Notes under the pieces: generated by a model
What the model was told of the DNA's origin: nothing
The model's input: the letters and a program-made list of their open reading frames with translations, nothing else
Databases searched by the model: none
Made by a program: the position numbers and the translations under genes
Assembly: GCA_964412775.1 (NCBI GenBank)
Contig: CAYPPX010000002.1
Span: 4,935-68,934, forward strand
DNA from: an uncultured Pseudomonadales bacterium
GTDB taxonomy: Bacteria; Patescibacteriota; Microgenomatia; UBA1400; PJMF01
Direction of reading: 5' to 3'
DNA: 64,000 nucleotides
Shown: positions 982 to 23,783 of the stretch, piece after piece
Layout: each line of letters begins with the position of its first letter
Position numbering within the stretch: position 1 is the stretch's first letter

Positions 982-1056
982 GCTTTACAACCGGGTAGAT
1001 TTTTGAGAAGCTGAAGGTGTCTTTTAATTAAAATTAATTAGTGTAAAGGAGAAAAT

Positions 1057-1380
1057 ATGGCTGACGAAATGAAAAAACCAGGATTGGAGGCTTTTAGTAA
1101 GGCTGTTGATTTGGCCAAGCAGTATGAAAAAGTGGAAATAGGACAAATTGATGAGTCAATGTTGAGAGAAGAGGTTGAAATTACTCCAGAAGATGAATCA
1201 TGGGTTAGTGTTCTAGTTGATCGAGTCAATCATTTGGCAGCTGAAAAAAATATTCCAGCAACTGAATTACTAAGAAGTTTGGTGGCTTCAGCAGGCGGAT
1301 TTGAACAACAAGCTGCCAAACCACCAATTCCTAGCGCTGACGATATTAGATTAGAAGGCTTACCATTAACCAATAAATAG
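1057..1380 (+). CDS. hypothetical acidic protein (107 aa)
   Basis: ORF with SD-like aaaggag 8 nt upstream of ATG; acidic composition; no family recognised. Confidence 0.4.
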   Translation: MADEMKKPGLEAFSKAVDLAKQYEKVEIGQIDESMLREEVEITPEDESWVSVLVDRVNHLAAEKNIPATELLRSLVASAGGFEQQAAKPPIPSADDIRLEGLPLTNK

Positions 1381-1391
1381 AAAGGTTTTTT

Positions 1392-1712
1392 ATGGCAGAA
1401 GCTCCCAAGCATTTACTCACTGAGTTAACTGATGAAATTGTGGCCAATCCTCAGCTTGTTGGCATAGAAGGTGAGATCAATGTGAATGAAGAAAGAGAGC
1501 CTAAAGAAGGTGATATTGATGGCGATGCTTTAGATACAATTGAAGTAAGTGATGGTTTGGCTCCAGCTGACAAAGACAGAATCGTGAAGATTATTAATTT
1601 GCTTGCAGATAAGAAAGCAAAGACTGGCCGAAACATGTTTTTTGACATCATGGCGATAATAATAGAAATGCAAGCAGAAAAAAGAACAGCTGCTGACCAA
1701 GTCGAAACCTAA
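1392..1712 (+). CDS. hypothetical acidic protein (106 aa)
   Basis: ORF 12 nt downstream of previous gene; very acidic; no family recognised. Confidence 0.4.
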   Translation: MAEAPKHLLTELTDEIVANPQLVGIEGEINVNEEREPKEGDIDGDALDTIEVSDGLAPADKDRIVKIINLLADKKAKTGRNMFFDIMAIIIEMQAEKRTAADQVET

Positions 1713-3145
1713 TCAGTTTGGACTGCCTTTTTGAACTGTTCACCACGATCTTGATAGTCTTTGAACAGGCCAAAACTAGCGCTAGCTGGACTGAGTAGAA
1801 TCACTCCTTGGCTTTCACCACTAAGCATAAAATATTGAGCCATGATGTGTTGAGCCTTACCAACGGCTTCTGGCATTGTTTTGGCAAATTCAATGACAAG
1901 GCTGTTATCAGTATCTAGATTATTTATTTCCACAGCTAACCTTTTGCCAGTCGGTTCAAATAAAACTAATCCAGCCACTTTTTTTTCTAGTATTTTTTTG
2001 GCTAATTCAGAGAAATCTTGGTGGCGTTCATAACCACCAGCTATTAAAACAACTGGTTCGGAGAAACTATCTAAAGCTCTCATGGCCGCATCAGGCATAG
2101 TAGAGAGAGAATCATCATAATAACGAATGCCTTTTTTTTGATAAAAAAACTCCAATCGATGGGGTAGAGCTTTAAAGTTTTGTAAGGCATTGCCAATCTG
2201 TTCTGCTGATAGATTAAACAGCGTTCCTACCACTACAGCAGGCATGACGTTTAATAGATTATGCTCGCCTTTGAGCGGCAGTTTCTCTATTTCTAAAATC
2301 AGTTCAGTTCTTTGTTGATTATCCTTGCGTAAAATCTGCTTATTTCTGACGAAAACAACGGCATCTGGTCCTTCTTGCAGTGAAAAACGTAGGTGTTGAC
2401 CAGCACTAAATTGGGTAATCTTGGTAGCACCAGTCATTTGCGGATTAAAAATAACAAAATCATTTTCAGTTTGATACTTACAAATAGGGATTTTGGCTTG
2501 TTGGTAACTGGCAGTATCTGGATAGTAATCGAGATGTTCGCTAGTGACATCTTGAACCACTGCAAGATGAGGACTGATGGTCATGGTTTCTAGCTGGTGG
2601 CTAGATAGTTCACAAACCACCAAAGAATCAGCATTAATTCTTTCTAAAATTGTCAAAGATGGTTGGCCAATATTACCCACTAAATGACTATCTAAGCCAT
2701 TCGTTTGCAAAACATGATGAATTATTGCTGAGGTGGTGCTTTTACCTTTGGTGCCAGTTACACCAATCGTTATTCCTGGACAGAGGCCAAAAAACAGCTG
2801 AGTGTTAGAAGTGAGTTGAGAACCGTTTTTTTTGGCTTGATCGATTGCTGGGATAGTTTGAGGAATGCCAGGGCTTTTAAAGATTAGCTGATAATTTTTT
2901 AGGTTAGTTAAATGATTGTTACCAAAGTAGTACTCAAGATGAGGATCATTTTTTAGTAGTTGTTGTTGATCTTCAGCAAATTTTTCTAGTGGTTGTTTGT
3001 CTGCCACGGCTAGTTTTTTATTGGGAAACTTGGTTCTCAAAAAATGGTAAGTTGACCAACCTTCTCGTCCCATTCCTAGAATCAGGATAGAGTTTTTTTC
3101 TAAGTTAGCCAAAACTTGTTGTTGATCGATCATAGTTTCTTTCAA
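1709..3145 (-). CDS. murD: UDP-N-acetylmuramoyl-L-alanine--D-glutamate ligase
   Basis: N-terminal Rossmann-like ILILGMGREG; Mur ligase P-loop GVTGTKGKSTT; overall Mur ligase architecture, 478 aa. Confidence 0.8.
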   Translation of the reverse strand: MKETMIDQQQVLANLEKNSILILGMGREGWSTYHFLRTKFPNKKLAVADKQPLEKFAEDQQQLLKNDPHLEYYFGNNHLTNLKNYQLIFKSPGIPQTIPAIDQAKKNGSQLTSNTQLFFGLCPGITIGVTGTKGKSTTSAIIHHVLQTNGLDSHLVGNIGQPSLTILERINADSLVVCELSSHQLETMTISPHLAVVQDVTSEHLDYYPDTASYQQAKIPICKYQTENDFVIFNPQMTGATKITQFSAGQHLRFSLQEGPDAVVFVRNKQILRKDNQQRTELILEIEKLPLKGEHNLLNVMPAVVVGTLFNLSAEQIGNALQNFKALPHRLEFFYQKKGIRYYDDSLSTMPDAAMRALDSFSEPVVLIAGGYERHQDFSELAKKILEKKVAGLVLFEPTGKRLAVEINNLDTDNSLVIEFAKTMPEAVGKAQHIMAQYFMLSGESQGVILLSPASASFGLFKDYQDRGEQFKKAVQTD

Positions 3146-4569
3146 AAATAGCTATTTTTAGCTTGACAAATTTGTTGAGCTTCTTGTTGTAGCAACTCGA
3201 CCAAGCTGTGATCCAAGTGATGCTGCTTATTCCAAAAACATAGTAGCATCTTAGTAGTTTGTTCTAGGTTGGGGACTTGAGAAAGAATTTCTTGATTAAT
3301 TTTTTCTAAAACCACTGGTAGTGGTTTATTTGGATGGTTTTTTTGCCATTTTTTAATGCTTAAGTAAAAAGCTGCTTGAGTTTCTTCATGAGTGCCAACA
3401 CACTCAAATGGTTTATTAGCATCAAGGCCCATTAATTCTTGAGCTGTTTGGTTGAGATTAGGTTTGGTAAAAAGGTTTTCAGAAAAAATTTCTGTAATTA
3501 GTTTTTGTTCGTCAATAAATGGGTAGAGGACAGCAAAAACAAATAAACATTTAGGACATTCTCCACACCACTGGTTTAGTTGTTGTCCTCTGTTACAGCT
3601 GCGAAAAATCGACTGAAATTGTTCATTTTTGCTAAATAGAGCTGCTATTTGTAGTTCGGTAAGAGGTCTGAGAAACGACAAATATTCAGGGGCTGATCCG
3701 AGATATTTTTTTACATAAGTTCTGAATTTATTTTCGAAGGCAAATGATTTAGAGTATTGGTGATTAACCATTATTCCCAGGTAAGGCACGTTACCTTCAT
3801 TAGCCGAGAATTCATTAGCTAATAAAATATTTTTATGACCACTCAGTAAAGCAACTAAGCTACTCTCAAAAGCCAATCTAGCGCTAAAAGGGGTATGGCC
3901 ATTTAAGTATCCTTGTTTGTTGAGTTCCAAGAGTTCTGGAGCAAAAGTTCTTTTTATTTCAATAATTTTAACTTGAGTTTCACTGGCTATTTTATGGGCA
4001 GCCGGTGATTGAGGATAGCTGAGTAGTATTTCGTAGGGAAGCTTATATTTGCTAAGTAAATTTATGACTAAAGCAGAATCTTTTCCGCCACCTACTGGGA
4101 CAAGAGCTTTATTTTTTGCTTGAAAAGAAAAGCTGGGTAGTTTTTGGGGAGTAAGAGTGTTTTGATTAGTAAATTTAACGAAGTTTGGTTGAGTGAAATC
4201 AATGTTATTGGTGTAAAAGTATTCACCCATGCCATCAAGCAGTAATCCTTGCCACCAAGAGAGTTGCTCTGGAGAAAGTGGCAGTGGCTGAATAACTATT
4301 TCTGGTGAGGCTGCTACTTTCCAATAGCTGAAGAGCTCAATCATCCCCAGATTAAAAACCCAGTGGCTAATGATTTCTTGAGGTATATTGGCAAAGGTTT
4401 GTTTATCTAGGTTGGTGATGGTGATTTGGGGTTGAAAATTAATGGCTGGTTCCAACAAAAAATCAAAAGAAATAGTCAATGTCTGGTTACTAAATTGCCA
4501 GTCAAAGCTTTGGTAGATGAAGCGGGGGTGTTGTTTTCTTAATGATTCGAGAGTTTTCTCGGTTGGCAT
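3142..4569 (-). CDS. PP-loop (N-type ATP pyrophosphatase) superfamily protein with C-terminal Cys cluster; function unknown
   Basis: Internal VPVGGGKDSAL resembles the SGGxDS PP-loop. C-terminal C...CGECPKC resembles QueC/amidotransferase-like zinc-binding motifs. Start overlaps murD stop (ATGA), suggesting translational coupling. Confidence 0.6.
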   Translation of the reverse strand: MPTEKTLESLRKQHPRFIYQSFDWQFSNQTLTISFDFLLEPAINFQPQITITNLDKQTFANIPQEIISHWVFNLGMIELFSYWKVAASPEIVIQPLPLSPEQLSWWQGLLLDGMGEYFYTNNIDFTQPNFVKFTNQNTLTPQKLPSFSFQAKNKALVPVGGGKDSALVINLLSKYKLPYEILLSYPQSPAAHKIASETQVKIIEIKRTFAPELLELNKQGYLNGHTPFSARLAFESSLVALLSGHKNILLANEFSANEGNVPYLGIMVNHQYSKSFAFENKFRTYVKKYLGSAPEYLSFLRPLTELQIAALFSKNEQFQSIFRSCNRGQQLNQWCGECPKCLFVFAVLYPFIDEQKLITEIFSENLFTKPNLNQTAQELMGLDANKPFECVGTHEETQAAFYLSIKKWQKNHPNKPLPVVLEKINQEILSQVPNLEQTTKMLLCFWNKQHHLDHSLVELLQQEAQQICQAKNSYF

Positions 4570-4975
4570 GCTTTTATTATACCTAGTCAGAGGAGATAAG
4601 GCTATTAACTGAAAGTTGGTTGAATAGGAGTGGTTAGCACCAACGAAAATAATTCGGGTGAGTTGATTCTGGATACTTTTTATTTATTTATGGTATTAAT
4701 TGGTTTTTTAAATAAATTTTCTCAAAAAAAAAGCTACTCAAAAACAATAAAAAATTAGTTAAGTTAACAGTCAGCCAATAGTGGTTTCGTGTTTTTTTCA
4801 ATAAAAAAATTCGGGTTTATTGAATTTCAAAAAATGAAGATACGAATAAAAGACGAAGTATGAAAAAGTATGACACTTTTCTTAAAACTTAGATTGGGAA
4901 AACCATAGACTATTGATACAATAGTTAATGGAAGCTGATCTTTTTCGTACTCTTTTCAGTTTTAAAAAGTAAAAA

Positions 4976-5779
4976 ATGAAGCAAAAAAACACAAAAAAGA
5001 CTTATGAAACAGTCCTTTTTCTAGGTAAATCTCTTTTTAGCAAAGATGAGAGTCAACTGCTAGAAAGCATTAGTGAAAAAATTATAAGGACTAAAAAAGT
5101 CATTAAGGTTTTCACTCCAAATCCAGAACAGTTTGTTTTAGCTGCTGAAAATAAAGACTTCTCTCGACTTTTGGATCAAGCAGATATTTTGTTGCCAGAT
5201 GGGGTAGGGGTGGTGATTTTTAGTCAGTTAGCCGAGAAATTAGTTGGTAAAAAAGGAGTTGAACAAAGGATCGCTGGAGTTGATATAGTAGAAAAATTAC
5301 TAAAATTAGCCAGTGATTATTCCTGGAAAGTTTTGTTGGTGGGGGGTAGGGGTTACCAACATAAGTTGCACCAGATTTCAGTATCAGGTTTGGCCACCGC
5401 CAAAAAACTCACCTTACTTTGGCAATCAGCTTACCAAAAGGTAGCTCAGCCGACGAAAGAGGAAGAACTTGCTTTAGTCAAACTAATCAAAAGGGAACAG
5501 CCAGACCTAGTGTTTGTGGCTTTTGGTGCGCCTTGGCAAGAAAAATGGATTGTAGACCATGAAGAACTATTAACAAGCAGTAAGGTTAAATTAGTAATGG
5601 CTGTTGGTGGATCATTTGATTTCCTGTTGGGGAAATTAAAGCGGGCACCACTAGGGTTGAGAGTGATAGGCTTGGAATGGTTGTTTAGATTATGGCAAGA
5701 ACCAAGTCGGTGGCGAAGACAGTTGAAATTAGCTAAGTTTATAAAATTGGCTATTATAGATTTGTTAAAGAAAAAATGA
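4976..5779 (+). CDS. WecB/TagA/CpsF-family glycosyltransferase
   Basis: Translation has ILLPDGVGVV, VLLVGGRG, LVFVAFGAPWQEKWI and EWLFRLWQEP blocks typical of the WecG/TagA family. Confidence 0.75.
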   Translation: MKQKNTKKTYETVLFLGKSLFSKDESQLLESISEKIIRTKKVIKVFTPNPEQFVLAAENKDFSRLLDQADILLPDGVGVVIFSQLAEKLVGKKGVEQRIAGVDIVEKLLKLASDYSWKVLLVGGRGYQHKLHQISVSGLATAKKLTLLWQSAYQKVAQPTKEEELALVKLIKREQPDLVFVAFGAPWQEKWIVDHEELLTSSKVKLVMAVGGSFDFLLGKLKRAPLGLRVIGLEWLFRLWQEPSRWRRQLKLAKFIKLAIIDLLKKK

Positions 5780-6350: not shown

Positions 6351-7805
6351 ATGACTTTAAAGAATAAAAAAGTTTTAATCGTTAATTCTGGAGGGACAAA
6401 TAAAACTCATACTTTTGCTAAGGCAAATGAGTTGGGGCTTGATCTATATCTTTTATTAACGGAAAAAGACTTATTAGAAAAAAAATGGGTTTTAAACTAT
6501 ATTCCCAAAAAGAAAATAATTCTGTCTAAGGATACTAATTTTGAGACTTTTATTGAGGATGTATTAGTTTTTCAAGAAAAAAATGGGATAAAGTTTGATG
6601 GAGTGACTACTTTTGTGGAAGAATACACTTTTCAAGCAAGTTGTGTTGCTTCAGCTCTAGGTAAAACTTTTATTTCTCCATCAGCAGTGATTAATAGCTC
6701 TTTTTACAAATATGTAATGAGAGAGAGATGCCGAGAAAAAGGAATTAAAACTCCTTACTACCATTTTTTTAAGACTCTCAAAGAACTCAAGTTGCTTTGC
6801 AAAAAGCTCAAATTTCCTGTGGTGATAAAGCCTCATGATGGCAATCATAGTTTGGCTGTTATAAAGATTAGTAATCCTCAAAATTCCAGAGAAGTAACCA
6901 AAGCATTTAATTTGGCAAAAAATGAAATGAACCAGTATTTTTCTTATAGATTTGATGGTGATAATCTATTTATTTTAGAAGAATTTATTGAAGGTTCTTT
7001 AATTTCTGTTGATGGGGTGATTCAAAATCAAAAGCCCAAAATAGTTGGTCTTGCTGAGTATTTTTTATCTCCAGATCCATTATTAGTTCCTGAGTTTAAC
7101 TTTATTCCCCCTGTAAGCGAAAATATTTTAAAGAATAAACAATCAATTTACTCAGAAACAAAAAAAATTTTGAAAGCACTAGGATTTGATAATTGTGGTT
7201 TTCATTGCGAGATGAAAGTTAACGGAAATCAAGTTATTTTAATAGAGATTGGGGCAAGAATTGCTGGAGGGCCCATTGCTCAAGGTTATTATCGAGCTTA
7301 CGGGCTGGATTTGGCCAAAGCCTCATATCAACTAAGCTTAGGTGATCAGGTTGAGTTTAAAAAAACAAAAAATAACTGTGTAATGCAAAAAGCTGTTTTT
7401 ACTTATGAAACCAGTCTTTTTAAAAAAGATTTTATCGATAAATTAAAAAAATATGATTACATCAAAGACTTGGTTAAGTTCTATAAAGAAGGAGACCTAA
7501 TTCGTATCTATGGCAATCAAGCTGAGGCTGTTTTTTACTATTGTGTTGAGGCTTCTAACCCAAAAAAACTGAATGAATATCTTAGTGAAATTGCAGACCT
7601 CAAGCTTTATGATTTTGAACCGGTTAAAATTGAGCAAAAGAAAAGTAAAGTACTTGAAGACCTAAAGAAAAAGAAAAATAAGCTAAAAAAAACTAAAATC
7701 GGTAAAGTGTTAAAGTTTGTTTCTGATGTTTGTAAAATTCCGTTTAATTACGAGTTAAGAGCTAATAAAGTAAAGAATATTTCTTGGTTTGATTTCTTTG
7801 AGTAA
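6351..7805 (+). CDS. ATP-grasp enzyme, L-amino-acid ligase (BacD/YwfE)-like
   Basis: N-terminal KKVLIVNSGG, central FPVVIKPHDGNHSLAV, FILEEFIEGS and GFDNCGFHCEMK...IEIGARIAGG align block-by-block with YwfE-type L-amino acid ligases. The gene is strikingly AT-rich (~30% GC). Confidence 0.6.
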   Translation: MTLKNKKVLIVNSGGTNKTHTFAKANELGLDLYLLLTEKDLLEKKWVLNYIPKKKIILSKDTNFETFIEDVLVFQEKNGIKFDGVTTFVEEYTFQASCVASALGKTFISPSAVINSSFYKYVMRERCREKGIKTPYYHFFKTLKELKLLCKKLKFPVVIKPHDGNHSLAVIKISNPQNSREVTKAFNLAKNEMNQYFSYRFDGDNLFILEEFIEGSLISVDGVIQNQKPKIVGLAEYFLSPDPLLVPEFNFIPPVSENILKNKQSIYSETKKILKALGFDNCGFHCEMKVNGNQVILIEIGARIAGGPIAQGYYRAYGLDLAKASYQLSLGDQVEFKKTKNNCVMQKAVFTYETSLFKKDFIDKLKKYDYIKDLVKFYKEGDLIRIYGNQAEAVFYYCVEASNPKKLNEYLSEIADLKLYDFEPVKIEQKKSKVLEDLKKKKNKLKKTKIGKVLKFVSDVCKIPFNYELRANKVKNISWFDFFE

Positions 7806-9378: not shown

Positions 9379-11340
9379 ATGAAAAAGTGCAACTCCAATA
9401 ACCTTTTGAAGAAAATCACTTTAAAAGTGGTTATTTTTTTGGGTTTGTTAGTTCCTAGTTTATTTATTAACTTAGTTAAAGTTCAAGCAGAGGAGAAAGA
9501 GTACCAGATTTCTTCAGTCAATATTCAAGCTGAGTTAAAAACCGATGGCTCGATGGAGGTCACCGAAACCAGAACCTACAACTTTACTGGTGACTTTCGG
9601 TTTGCTTACCAACGAATTAATTTAAAACCAGATCAAAAAACTGATCCTGGTCGTAGCGAATCATATAGGGTAAGAATTAAAAGTTTATGTGATGAAAAAA
9701 CTTGTTATAAATTTGTTGAACCAAATAAAATTGATTTGACTGAACGCCGTAACAATCAGCCTGGTACTTATACAGTAATTTATAACAACGATGAAGTTTA
9801 TATCCAGTGGCACTATGCAACCGTTAATGGTAGTAAAGTTTTTAAGCTCAACTATTTAGTCGATAATGCCGTGACTTTACATGAAGATGTGGCCGAGCTT
9901 TATTGGCAGTTTGTGGGGAGTGAGTGGGAAGTTGCCCAAAAAAATATTACCGTTGACTTAAATTTGCCAGACGGGATTAGTGGTGATGACATTGAAGCTT
10001 GGGGACATGGAGAGCTAAGTGGGGTGATTGCAATTCCTAATAACAAGCTAGTTAAAATTACGGTCCGAAATATTAGTTCAGGTAAAATAGCTGAAGCGAG
10101 AGTGATCTTACCCAAAACAGTGTTTTTAACGGGCGCTAAAGGGCTTTTTTCTAAGACAAAGATTAAAGAACAAGAACAAACTTTTATTATTGAAACTCAA
10201 AAATGGTTGGGGAGAAATCAAATTTTTGTCAAAATTCAGTTGCTATTGGTTGGAGCTTCTTGGTTGACGGCGATGGTGATTTTTTTCAAATGGTTATTGG
10301 TCGATCGACAAAAAATTCCTAAAGCCAACCAAGCCGATCGTTTCTGGGAACCACCGAGTGAGCTTAACCCGGCTTCAGTGGAGCAGTTACTCAATCACCG
10401 TCAACCTCTGACAGTCAAGTCATTTACTGCTGTGGCCTTATCTTTGGTGCAACAAAAGTTTATGAAGATTATTCGGAGTGATGAGAAACAAGGCTTCTTG
10501 CTTAAAAAATATGAGTATGGTTTTGTTAGGATAAAAAACCAGAAAAAAATAGGCGAAGTTGAACAGCTGGTTTTTGATTATTTATTTGAAAAAGTAGCTC
10601 GTCATCAAGACACTATTTGGTTTAAAGATTTAATTGGTTACAACAAAAAACACCCAAGTGGGGCAAGAAGTCTGCTTAAAGATTTGGAAAAAAAAGCTTT
10701 TGCCGTAAATAAAGACAAAGAATTCATTGACGAAAAAACTAAAAGCAGTTTTTTCAAAACAGTTAAGCCTTTGTTATTAATTTTTGCAGTCTCAATCGTG
10801 GTGATTATTATTCAAGCTATTTGGTTAGGTGAATATTTAGATCCAACGGCGATTTTTATCAGTCTGTTTGGGCAAATGTATTTAGCCTTTGGTTTGCTTA
10901 TTGCTGGCTCAATAGCAGCTTTGAGTTTCCGTTACTCTGAGAGTGGACTCAAAGAAGCTTCTTTATGGCGAGCCTTTGCCAAACACATGAAAGATTATCG
11001 TCAGACTAGAGATTATCCTATCGATTCGGTAATTTTATGGGAAAAGTATCTAGTTTATGGCACACTTTTTGGGGTATCTGCTAAAGCGTTGGCCCAATTA
11101 CCAGTTAGGTTTGATTTGAATGACCCAGTGGTAACTGGCTATTGGGTGGGTCATAGTTACGCAACTGGTAATGATTTTTCATCATCATTTAGTGGTTTAT
11201 CTGATTCTCTAAATTCGGTTTTGCACTCTTTTAGTAGCTCTACCACTCAAAGTTTTGGAGCAAGTGGGGCTGGATCTTCTGGTGGTTTTTCTGGTGGTGG
11301 GGGAGGTGGAGGAGGTGGCGGTGGCGGTAGCGCTGGTTAA
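9379..11340 (+). CDS. DUF2207-family membrane protein
   Basis: Signal peptide, extracytoplasmic domain, internal TM segments and a C-terminal GGFSGGGGGGGGGGGGSAG poly-Gly tail characteristic of DUF2207 proteins. Confidence 0.6.
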   Translation: MKKCNSNNLLKKITLKVVIFLGLLVPSLFINLVKVQAEEKEYQISSVNIQAELKTDGSMEVTETRTYNFTGDFRFAYQRINLKPDQKTDPGRSESYRVRIKSLCDEKTCYKFVEPNKIDLTERRNNQPGTYTVIYNNDEVYIQWHYATVNGSKVFKLNYLVDNAVTLHEDVAELYWQFVGSEWEVAQKNITVDLNLPDGISGDDIEAWGHGELSGVIAIPNNKLVKITVRNISSGKIAEARVILPKTVFLTGAKGLFSKTKIKEQEQTFIIETQKWLGRNQIFVKIQLLLVGASWLTAMVIFFKWLLVDRQKIPKANQADRFWEPPSELNPASVEQLLNHRQPLTVKSFTAVALSLVQQKFMKIIRSDEKQGFLLKKYEYGFVRIKNQKKIGEVEQLVFDYLFEKVARHQDTIWFKDLIGYNKKHPSGARSLLKDLEKKAFAVNKDKEFIDEKTKSSFFKTVKPLLLIFAVSIVVIIIQAIWLGEYLDPTAIFISLFGQMYLAFGLLIAGSIAALSFRYSESGLKEASLWRAFAKHMKDYRQTRDYPIDSVILWEKYLVYGTLFGVSAKALAQLPVRFDLNDPVVTGYWVGHSYATGNDFSSSFSGLSDSLNSVLHSFSSSTTQSFGASGAGSSGGFSGGGGGGGGGGGGSAG

Positions 11341-11414: not shown

Positions 11415-12719
11415 ATGCGAGAAATCTTTAGAAAAATTACTGACAGCTCAGCTAATTGGTTACAACAGCGAATTGAAAATAGCATCCAAGGTCAAGGTAA
11501 AGATAACAAAAATTTGTTATCTAGAATTGCTTTGGACAAACTCAAGCGTCGTAGCCAGTCAGAACAAGTTGTCCCTCAGGAATTTGAGGCCAAGTTTAAC
11601 CAATGGCGAACCGTAATTGAGCAAGATCGCTATGAACTTTCAAATCCTGACGAAACAGGTGAAATTAGAAGATTCTACTCCATGGCCAATGGTATTTATG
11701 GTGAGCCGTTAATTACTGCAGAACCTGATTTAGCTTTTGCTTTGCCACCAGCAGTTAGTTTTGTTAACGCCAAAGGTAAAGCAATCGATCAACCTTCAAT
11801 GAAAATTTCTGGCATTATTTGTCAAAGTAAAGCTGAAGTAGGTGATGGGGAAGAAGCCCAAGTAGTGGTGGATCACCGGGTAAGTTTAAGTAACAAAGGC
11901 ACTAGAACAATTGAACAGACTGAAGATGGCCTAATAATTAATGGTGAGCGTTGGTATTTAAAAACCCTTTTTTCCAAAGATGGTAATAGAATCAAAAACT
12001 ATGATGCTTACTACGTCAAAACCAAACCAGAAAGTGTGCAATTTTTAGAGCTACAAGATATTAATTTTGTGGGTGTTAACCAGTCAGCCGAGCATTCAGA
12101 ACAAACCGAGACAGAGCAGTGGCGAGAGCTTTTAACTGATAAAACTGACCTCAAAAGACTAGCCAAACTTACTTACAAAAAACTTAAAAGAAAACTTGAG
12201 TCTCTTGATCCAGAAAATAAACCAGTAGCAGAATACCAGTTCAAACAATGGACTTTTAGGTTTTGGGCAGATAAGTATGAAATTGTAAATTTAGAGCCAG
12301 ATGGTACTGAGCGTTTTTACAAAGTGATCAAAGGTAAATATGGTGAGCCAATTATTGTGGCAGAACCTGATCGGGCTTATGCTTCTCCAGAAAATGCTGA
12401 GTATGCTAATGCTAAAGGTGAGACTATTCCAAGACCTGAGGGTGATATTTCTGGGATTATTTGTCAGAATGAAAATGGTTCTGTAGCTCATCGGTTTAGT
12501 TTATCTAATCCCAAAACTCCCAAGTTTAGAGTCACTAAAGATGGTTTGATCCTATTTTTAAAAGATGAAGCTGGCAAAGTGACTAAAGAGCGTTGGTATC
12601 TTAATACCATGTTTGCCAAAGACAAAAATCGGGTCAAAAACCATGATGGTTACTACAGTCGTCAAAAACCAGCCAAGATCAAGATGGTTGAGCTCCAAGA
12701 CTTAGAGTTTGTTGATTAA
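11415..12719 (+). CDS. hypothetical protein built from two tandem copies of an uncharacterised ~170-aa domain
   Basis: Residues ~55-260 and ~270-434 are clearly homologous (YGEPLITAEPD.../YGEPIIVAEPD..., ISGIICQ, ERWYL.T.F.KD.NR.KN.D.YY, ELQD..FV). Confidence 0.55.
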   Translation: MREIFRKITDSSANWLQQRIENSIQGQGKDNKNLLSRIALDKLKRRSQSEQVVPQEFEAKFNQWRTVIEQDRYELSNPDETGEIRRFYSMANGIYGEPLITAEPDLAFALPPAVSFVNAKGKAIDQPSMKISGIICQSKAEVGDGEEAQVVVDHRVSLSNKGTRTIEQTEDGLIINGERWYLKTLFSKDGNRIKNYDAYYVKTKPESVQFLELQDINFVGVNQSAEHSEQTETEQWRELLTDKTDLKRLAKLTYKKLKRKLESLDPENKPVAEYQFKQWTFRFWADKYEIVNLEPDGTERFYKVIKGKYGEPIIVAEPDRAYASPENAEYANAKGETIPRPEGDISGIICQNENGSVAHRFSLSNPKTPKFRVTKDGLILFLKDEAGKVTKERWYLNTMFAKDKNRVKNHDGYYSRQKPAKIKMVELQDLEFVD

Positions 12720-21540: not shown

Positions 21541-21616
21541 GCCTTTGTAGCTCAGGTGGCAGAGCGCAGTCTTGGTAAGACTGAGGTCTCGGGTTCGAAC
21601 CCCGACAAAGGCTCCT
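21541..21616 (+). tRNA. tRNA-Thr (anticodon GGT)
   Basis: Cloverleaf with acceptor GCCTTTG/CAAAGGC, anticodon loop TTGGTAA, T-arm GGGTTCGAACCCC. Confidence 0.9.
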
Positions 21617-21624
21617 AAAATTAT

Positions 21625-21707
21625 GCCAAGGTACTGAAGTGGTCAAACAGGGCAGTCTGTAAAACTGCTGGCTTTCGCCTTCGTAGGTTCGAATCCTTCC
21701 CTTGGCA
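21625..21707 (+). tRNA. tRNA-Tyr (anticodon GTA), type II with long variable arm
   Basis: Acceptor GCCAAGG/CCTTGGC, anticodon loop CTGTAAA, variable stem-loop GGC-TTTC-GCC, T-loop TTCGAAT. Confidence 0.85.
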
Positions 21708-21758
21708 CATTATGCTTAGAAATCGCTTTTAGCGATTTTTTAGTGTAATAGATCTACC

Positions 21759-21831
21759 GCCAACTTAGCTCAGTTGGTAGAGCAACGGTTTTGTAAACCG
21801 TAGGTCGTGGGTTCAAGTCCCACAGTTGGCT
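21759..21831 (+). tRNA. tRNA-Thr (anticodon TGT)
   Basis: Acceptor GCCAACT/AGTTGGC, anticodon loop TTTGTAA, T-arm GTGGGTTCAAGTCCCAC. Confidence 0.9.
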
Positions 21832-23709: not shown

Positions 23710-23783
23710 AGGGCTATGATGTAGCTGGTAGCATGAAGGTCTCCAAAACCTTTCGCCGGGGTTCAAATCCTCGTGGCCCTGCA
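23710..23783 (+). tRNA. tRNA-Trp (anticodon CCA)
   Basis: Acceptor AGGGCTA/TGGCCCT (one G:U), anticodon stem AAGGT/ACCTT with loop CTCCAAA, T-loop TTCAAAT. Confidence 0.85.

Follow-up and report, generated by a model that had tools for sequence, protein, structure and literature searches.

The system closest to the locus described here is the MurL/MurD2 pathway of Xanthomonas oryzae, for which we drew the background from two reviews of the discovering laboratory (PMC8788868, PMC5808125). X. oryzae possesses neither a glutamate racemase nor a D-amino-acid aminotransferase, and two adjacent genes of this organism jointly complement an Escherichia coli D-glutamate (D-Glu) auxotroph (PMC8788868, PMC5808125). 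MurL requires adenosine triphosphate (ATP) and Mg, uses one ATP, yields adenosine monophosphate (AMP) and acts only in the L to D direction, and its Micromonospora and Salinispora orthologues have also been confirmed in vitro (PMC8788868, PMC5808125). Adenylation of the alpha-carboxylate was proposed by the discovering authors, and the 2018 and 2021 reviews left the mechanism open and noted that MurL 'lacks known conserved domains' (PMC8788868, PMC5808125). The published distribution covers a small number of genera among the Gamma- and Alphaproteobacteria together with rare actinobacteria, summarized as 'relatively few genera' (PMC8788868). Here we examined a 64-kb stretch of contig CAYPPX010000002.1 (referred to as the window, at its full length of 64,000 nucleotides), in which an open reading frame (ORF) of 475 amino acids (aa) directly precedes a murD gene.

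From this examination, the 475-aa ORF very probably encodes a divergent MurL and its neighbour a MurD2-type ligase that adds L-glutamate (L-Glu), the two genes together forming a murL-murD2 operon. The enzymatic activities of both window proteins are predicted from the computational analysis. An initial annotation had placed the ORF at 3142-4569, where it does appear in the ORF list on the minus strand, and had described its product as an uncharacterised PP-loop ATPase, a finding that is mostly explained by the known MurL family. The features on which the assignment draws are as follows.

3142..4569, minus strand: murL ORF, 475 aa, with its ATG at 4569 and its TGA stop at 3144-3142 (ORF list and translation).
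4075..4092, minus strand: GGGKDS (residues 160-165), the PP-loop motif predicted to bind the pyrophosphate of ATP.
3547..3597, minus strand: Cys4 cluster C325-x9-C335-x2-C338-x2-C341 (C-NRGQQLNQW-CGEC-PKC), a predicted QueC-type structural Zn site.
3394..3414, minus strand: K386-P387-F-E-C390-V-G392, a conserved C-terminal-domain loop that may act as catalytic acid/base or as a lid.
1709..3145, minus strand: murD, candidate MurD2 (TIGR01087 murD match, 332 bits; E. coli MurD alignment).
3142..3145, minus strand: TTGA junction, formed by the overlap of the murL TGA (3144-3142) with the TTG (3145-3143) that is a candidate start of murD.

The sole NCBIfam match of the 475-aa protein was NF041275 ('MurL_Xanthmoales', UDP-N-acetyl-alpha-D-muramoyl-L-alanyl-L-glutamate epimerase), recovered at an E of 3.2e-75 and 253 bits as one stretch that aligns residues 16-462 with positions 11-445 of the 447 in the profile. 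Newer, precomputed Pfam annotation of the exact protein sequence gives MurL_N (PF26299) and MurL_epimerase_C (PF26298), and with these three assignments the description 'uncharacterised' no longer holds. Profile searches had been suggested by the initial annotation with families such as QueC in mind. They did not place the protein in that family, as the Pfam QueC model (PF06508) reached 14 bits against a gathering threshold of 22 and covered residues 298-342 only; DUF6395 was also sub-threshold, both matches coming from an older Pfam copy and lying over the Cys cluster (residues 298-343), and MurL was found instead. We regard the protein as QueC-like in fold but, with its score below threshold, outside the QueC family.

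A word-indexed search in which 8,000 candidates were scored returned at least 7,994 clusters at 90% identity with E <= 0.001, and all 120 of the matches listed carry MurL_N together with MurL_epimerase_C. When the 50%-identity representatives were searched exhaustively, 2,542 clusters were recovered at E <= 1e-3 and 1,143 at E <= 1e-30. The best homologue (P0001; 93% identical) belongs to a metagenome-assembled genome (MAG) labelled 'Patescibacteria group bacterium' and is named 'hypothetical protein'. It was noted that other members are named '7-cyano-7-deazaguanine synthase' (P0091; Joint Genome Institute, JGI) and 'PT domain-containing protein' (P0020; NCBI), so that annotation is inconsistent across the family. 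A PDB sequence search with the MurL protein gave nothing meaningful, the only match being an antibody variable fragment (Fv) at an E of 0.1.

We then considered the linkage of murL with murD. The initial annotation had asked whether the position next to murD is conserved in relatives, and it is: in nine of nine unfused loci murL is followed directly by murD on the same strand. These loci comprise the window, a Patescibacteria MAG (L002), L003, a 5.1-Mb contig (L008), a Woesebacteria locus (P0026), a Blastocatellia locus (L010), L011, L012 and L013. The Patescibacteria-type loci share a wider conserved block, in which L10/L12, a MerR-type helix-turn-helix (HTH) gene and a divergent WecG gene stand on one side of murL-murD and a convergent MreB gene on the other. 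In two Clostridiaceae MAGs the two proteins form a single polypeptide of 1,055 aa (fused locus L004:5971-9138). Among the best 150 of the 2,542 50%-cluster representatives, approximately 31 are MurL-MurD fusions of about 800-1,070 aa with near-full MurD coverage (for example P0121, P0122, P0123 and P0127). The order within the fusions is nearly always MurL and then MurD, as in the gene order of the window; P0156 is clearly reversed, and P0185 may be, although what stands ahead of its MurL part is no more than a partial Mur-ligase match. That MurL and MurD are fused in many lineages argues strongly for their action in one pathway, and the MurL family extends far beyond the published distribution and contains more fusions than that distribution would suggest.

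Two further members, P0238 (1,247 aa) and P0227 (791 aa), were noted to carry extra regions of no identified family. At the non-Patescibacteria locus L012:6971-9229, murL-murD is followed by a gene of the MR_MLE group (enolase superfamily) and an M20 peptidase gene. L-Ala-D/L-Glu epimerases are among the members of the MR_MLE family, and these neighbours hint at a local cluster for the metabolism or recycling of stem-peptide Glu.

For the MurD neighbour, the window protein was aligned to E. coli MurD with the numbering anchored on K115, H183 and K198. Residues E203, L347, R374, A456 and F458 of the window protein align with E. coli D182, K319, K348, A414 and L416, respectively. In X. oryzae MurD2, the residues E197, R358, P433 and F435 correspond to E. 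coli D182, K348, A414 and L416 and lie near the Glu site; the E197D/R358K double mutant switches fully to D-Glu, and K319T makes E. coli MurD accept L-Glu (PMC8788868). We compared these positions across 39 MurL-linked MurDs, either adjacent to or fused with MurL, with the following result.

E. coli D182: Glu in 34 of the 39.
E. coli K348: Arg in 38 of the 39.
E. coli K319: Leu or Ile in 37 of the 39, never Lys.
E. coli L416: Phe or Tyr in all 39.

With E203 and R374, the window MurD therefore has the modal pattern of the MurL-linked enzymes, including both residues that set L-Glu specificity. Among canonical MurDs with PDB structures, D182/K319/K348 are D/K/K in the enzymes of E. coli and T. 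maritima and in 7sy9 and 7sir, and T/K/R in that of S. agalactiae. One might read the window MurD as a canonical D-Glu ligase, with the MurL homologue acting elsewhere, either in recycling or proofreading muropeptides that contain L-Glu or in epimerising another residue. The S. agalactiae D-Glu enzyme also has Arg at K348, so that this residue alone is not diagnostic, and the window MurD scores above the cut-off of TIGR01087, the equivalog model for canonical murD (332 bits against 212). However, that model was in place before MurD2 was discovered, and the MurD2 of X. oryzae had itself been annotated as MurD (PMC8788868). None of the five canonical structures shows what the window MurD has in full, namely Glu at D182 and Arg at K348 together with a residue other than Lys at K319, and we consider a canonical ligase at this locus very unlikely.

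The assignment to MurL and MurD2 was weighed against several observations that speak against it. The NF041275 score of 253 bits is far under the equivalog cut-off of 700, and orthology to an assayed enzyme depends on remote homology together with gene context. Asp is retained at the D182 position in four of the 39 MurL-linked MurDs, so the MurD2 signature is not absolute, and at A414 the window MurD has Ala where X. oryzae MurD2 has Pro. The searches for MurI and for a second MurD, moreover, cover the 64-kb window, a small part of the genome. On the other hand, NF041275 is the only curated MurL model and was built for one order, Xanthomonadales. The other homologues scored, those of L003 and L004 from unrelated MAGs, all reach 200-222 bits against it, so that the cut-off appears to separate lineages and not functions. 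Pro occurs at the A414 position in only six of the 39 MurL-linked MurDs, and neither P433A nor F435L changed the specificity of X. oryzae MurD2 (PMC8788868).

We next examined the conserved residues of the predicted MurL. In alignments of 46 and 62 homologues (32-93% identity), no variation occurs at G161, G162, K163, D164, C325, C335, C338 or C341, and S165 is kept in at least 90% of sequences, which indicates that the GGGKDS and Cys4 motifs are not chance matches. The same alignments show K386, P387, C390 and G392 to be invariant, together with H225, E253, S255, N269-H270-Q271, S273-K274 and E279. The initial annotation had located GGGKDS at residues ~160-165, in agreement with the translation. 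It had also reported a Cys cluster near the C-terminus; the cluster exists, at residues 325-341, with a further 134 residues between it and the C-terminus. Binding of Zn by the Cys4 cluster is predicted from these sequence patterns, and a catalytic role for the K386-G392 loop may be envisaged on the same grounds.

An AlphaFold2 model of MurL was generated from the 62-sequence alignment, with a mean predicted local distance difference test score (pLDDT) of 95.6 and a predicted template modelling score (pTM) of 0.93. In this model an alpha/beta domain at the N-terminus (~1-140) is followed by a PP-loop domain resembling QueC (~150-350) and by a helical domain at the C-terminus (~351-475). The only block of reduced confidence in an otherwise 95+ model is residues 381-390 (pLDDT 80), which holds the Cys390 loop. 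The structure prediction that the initial annotation had recommended thus gave a confident PP-loop ATPase fold around an intact GGGKDS. The PP-loop ATP pyrophosphatase superfamily is recognized by an SGGxDS-type loop that follows the first beta-strand in a Rossmann-like domain. MurL has this loop, which is intact and invariant and, like the fold, compatible with AMP-forming chemistry. Foldseek ranked QatC, Cap9 and QueC as the top PDB matches of the model and recovered no solved full-length MurL structure. Other structural relatives include the nitrile synthetase ArtA, NAD synthetase, asparagine-synthetase-like enzymes and an N-acetyl sugar amidotransferase. When the MurL profile was aligned to the single E. 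coli QueC sequence with hhalign, only the Cys cluster aligned, onto C-x8-C-x2-C-x2-C at 186-206, which is the zinc site of QueC. These fold and Cys-cluster matches lead us to describe MurL as a QueC-like PP-loop core between family-specific N- and C-terminal domains.

Such matches raise the question of whether the protein is a QueC-like deazapurine, queuosine or tRNA enzyme, or a defence enzyme like QatC or Cap9, that merely adjoins murD. In addition to the fold matches, the sub-threshold Pfam QueC match and the JGI name of P0091 point in this direction. That match, however, is confined to the Cys cluster; additional conserved domains stand at both ends of the protein, only ~175 of whose 475 residues align to QueC, and the murD neighbour is kept across distant lineages, often within one polypeptide. 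No queD, queE, queF or Qat/CBASS partners were found in the loci examined. We judge this explanation to be extremely improbable, and the queuosine/tRNA 'hitch-hiker' function entertained in the initial annotation is contradicted by the conserved synteny and frequent MurD fusion.

A different possibility is that the protein adenylates the stem-peptide Glu alpha-carboxylate and passes it to ammonia to give iso-glutamine, as an analogue of MurT/GatD. The nearest structural relatives (QueC, ArtA, NAD synthetase, asparagine-synthetase-like enzymes and N-acetyl sugar amidotransferase) adenylate their substrates before attack by ammonia or an amine, and the window clade is remote from the assayed MurLs, as the 253 bits against the cut-off of 700 indicate. 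Yet the assayed family members are epimerases that release AMP and form no amide product (PMC8788868). A glutaminase partner is encoded next to murL in none of the nine loci, and no MurT/GatD genes stand beside the murL ORF of the window. The partner MurD also bears L-Glu-specific residues, which imply a need for epimerisation. We therefore assign very little probability to amidation; as a member of the MurL family, the protein is predicted to catalyse epimerisation and not a MurT/GatD-like amidation. The alternative amidation-type modification put forward earlier is not upheld, since assayed members are epimerases. The underlying idea of PP-loop adenylation chemistry linked to the Glu installed by MurD was right in spirit, given the MurL family assignment and the linkage to MurD.

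The window, with a guanine-cytosine (GC) content of 37%, encodes MreB, MreC and a transpeptidase of the penicillin-binding protein 2 (PBP2) type, from which we infer that the organism makes peptidoglycan. No MurI homologue was found in the 64-kb window with an E. coli MurI query (tblastn and phmmer), nor was a second MurD. In the mechanism that we propose, the murL-murD2 operon would supply stem-peptide D-Glu without free D-glutamate. The first step of QueC is a carboxylate adenylation. By analogy, the PP-loop of MurL (GGGKDS) would bind ATP-Mg and adenylate the alpha-carboxylate of the terminal L-Glu, which would account for the reported formation of AMP. The activated ester would acidify the C-alpha proton, possibly by way of a racemisation-prone oxazolone that the activated N-acyl amino acid would give; an enzyme base would then take this proton, and a proton would be returned from the opposite face. 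Candidate bases are the invariant C390, H225, H270, K274 and E253, among which Cys390 may be the most attractive acid/base candidate. The reaction would be unidirectional because, in this proposal, only the L-epimer is adenylated.

The arrangement of the two genes differs from what had been reported. The initial annotation had the start of the ORF overlapping the murD stop (ATGA); the order is the reverse, with murL first on the minus strand, murD downstream, and the murL stop overlapping the murD TTG in the TTGA junction. An alternative murD start, ATG at 3133-3131, lies 12 nt further on, and overlapping or closely spaced murL-murD junctions likewise occur in L002, L008, L010 and L013. Upstream, a 406-bp intergenic region 5' of the murL ATG is common to the divergent gene for a WecG/TagA-family glycosyltransferase and contains one possible promoter element.

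4576..4581, minus strand: TATAAT hexamer, a possible -10 box read from the sequence with low confidence, ending 6 nt 5' of the murL ATG.

No obvious Shine-Dalgarno sequence was seen ahead of this ATG. With low confidence, the position of the TATAAT may point to an operon transcript that is leaderless or has a very short leader. A consensus promoter and terminator scan of 1000-5200 gave fewer promoter-like sites than shuffled controls and nothing convincing for the operon; the TATAAT is missing from its output because no -35 hexamer matches. An Rfam scan of the window returned only four transfer RNA (tRNA) genes, none near murL-murD, of which three are clustered and the fourth lies ~2 kb away (21541-21831 and 23710-23781, plus strand).

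Several other genes in the surroundings were noted. Two small acidic ORFs of 107 and 106 aa (1057-1380 and 1392-1712, plus strand) lie between mreB and the end of murD and are convergent with murD, and the Woesebacteria P0026 locus has small unannotated ORFs at the matching position, on the opposite strand relative to murD. Between the HTH gene and the L7/L12 gene is encoded an ATP-grasp protein of 484 aa (Pfam ATP-grasp_4; 6351-7805, plus strand), which could be an amino-acid ligase. Its gene is kept at the same place in L002, the 93%-identical relative, and is missing from the otherwise syntenic Patescibacteria loci P0026, L011 and L013. Further along the plus strand are a DUF2207 membrane protein (9379-11340) with a long C-terminal glycine run (…GGFSGGGGGGGGGGGGSAG) and a 434-aa protein without a Pfam match (11415-12719). 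The latter appears internally duplicated into two similar halves, with the half-repeat '...YGEP(L/I)I(T/V)AEPD(L/R)A(F/Y)A...ISGIICQ...ERWYL(K/N)T(L/M)F(S/A)KD(G/K)NR(I/V)KN(Y/H)D(A/G)YY...(V/F)(Q/K)(F/M)(L/V)ELQD(I/L)(N/E)FV'.

Taken more widely, we lean slightly towards the view that MurD2/MurL is the standard D-Glu route in much of the Patescibacteria (candidate phyla radiation, CPR) and in many uncultured lineages, often as a fusion, with MurL a QueC-derived PP-loop adenylator that has a Zn-binding Cys4 cluster and Cys390 as its base. If true, so wide a route contrasts with the published view of 'relatively few genera'. The size of the family and its many natural MurL-MurD fusions weaken the argument that a few-genera distribution makes MurL a narrow-spectrum drug target (PMC8788868). 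This distribution is already visible in databases, though undiscussed, because current Pfam and JGI annotation label the proteins MurL. In our literature search no paper tied MurL to QueC, to the PP-loop or to Patescibacteria/CPR, and nothing was found on glutamate racemase or D-glutamate in these organisms. The modelled QueC-like PP-loop fold would offer a structural basis for the adenylation mechanism that the 2018 and 2021 reviews left open, and the locus suggests how a reduced genome could build D-Glu peptidoglycan without a glutamate racemase. For annotation, both the 'hypothetical protein' name of P0001 and the would-be D-glutamate ligase name of the neighbour are correctable.

Compared with MurT/GatD, the Gram-positive amidotransferase for lipid II D-Glu, MurL shares an ATP-using modification at the alpha-carboxylate of stem-peptide residue 2. 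The two are not homologous, however, and the MurT/GatD product is iso-Gln and not a residue of changed chirality. MurT reportedly has a Mur-ligase fold, an acyl-phosphate route and a glutaminase partner. QueC (PDB 3bl5), Cap9 and QatC differ from MurL in that ~175 of the 475 MurL residues align with them; MurL has an added N-terminal domain (~140 aa) and an added helical domain at the C-terminus (~125 aa), and its substrate is a uridine diphosphate (UDP)-muramyl dipeptide, with no nitrogen nucleophile. The glutamate racemase MurI likewise supplies D-Glu for peptidoglycan, but it is a cofactor-independent two-Cys racemase that acts reversibly on free Glu, whereas MurL works on a nucleotide-linked dipeptide, consumes ATP and is unidirectional (PMC8788868). 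With the characterised MurL, the window protein shares full-length homology, the two-domain Pfam architecture and the pairing with an E/R-type MurD2. It differs in its very divergent sequence (253 bits against the cut-off of 700) and in its low-GC, Patescibacteria-like host, a group outside the published distribution (PMC8788868). MurL is a known family, and the window protein adds a divergent member to it and leaves the kind of system unchanged.

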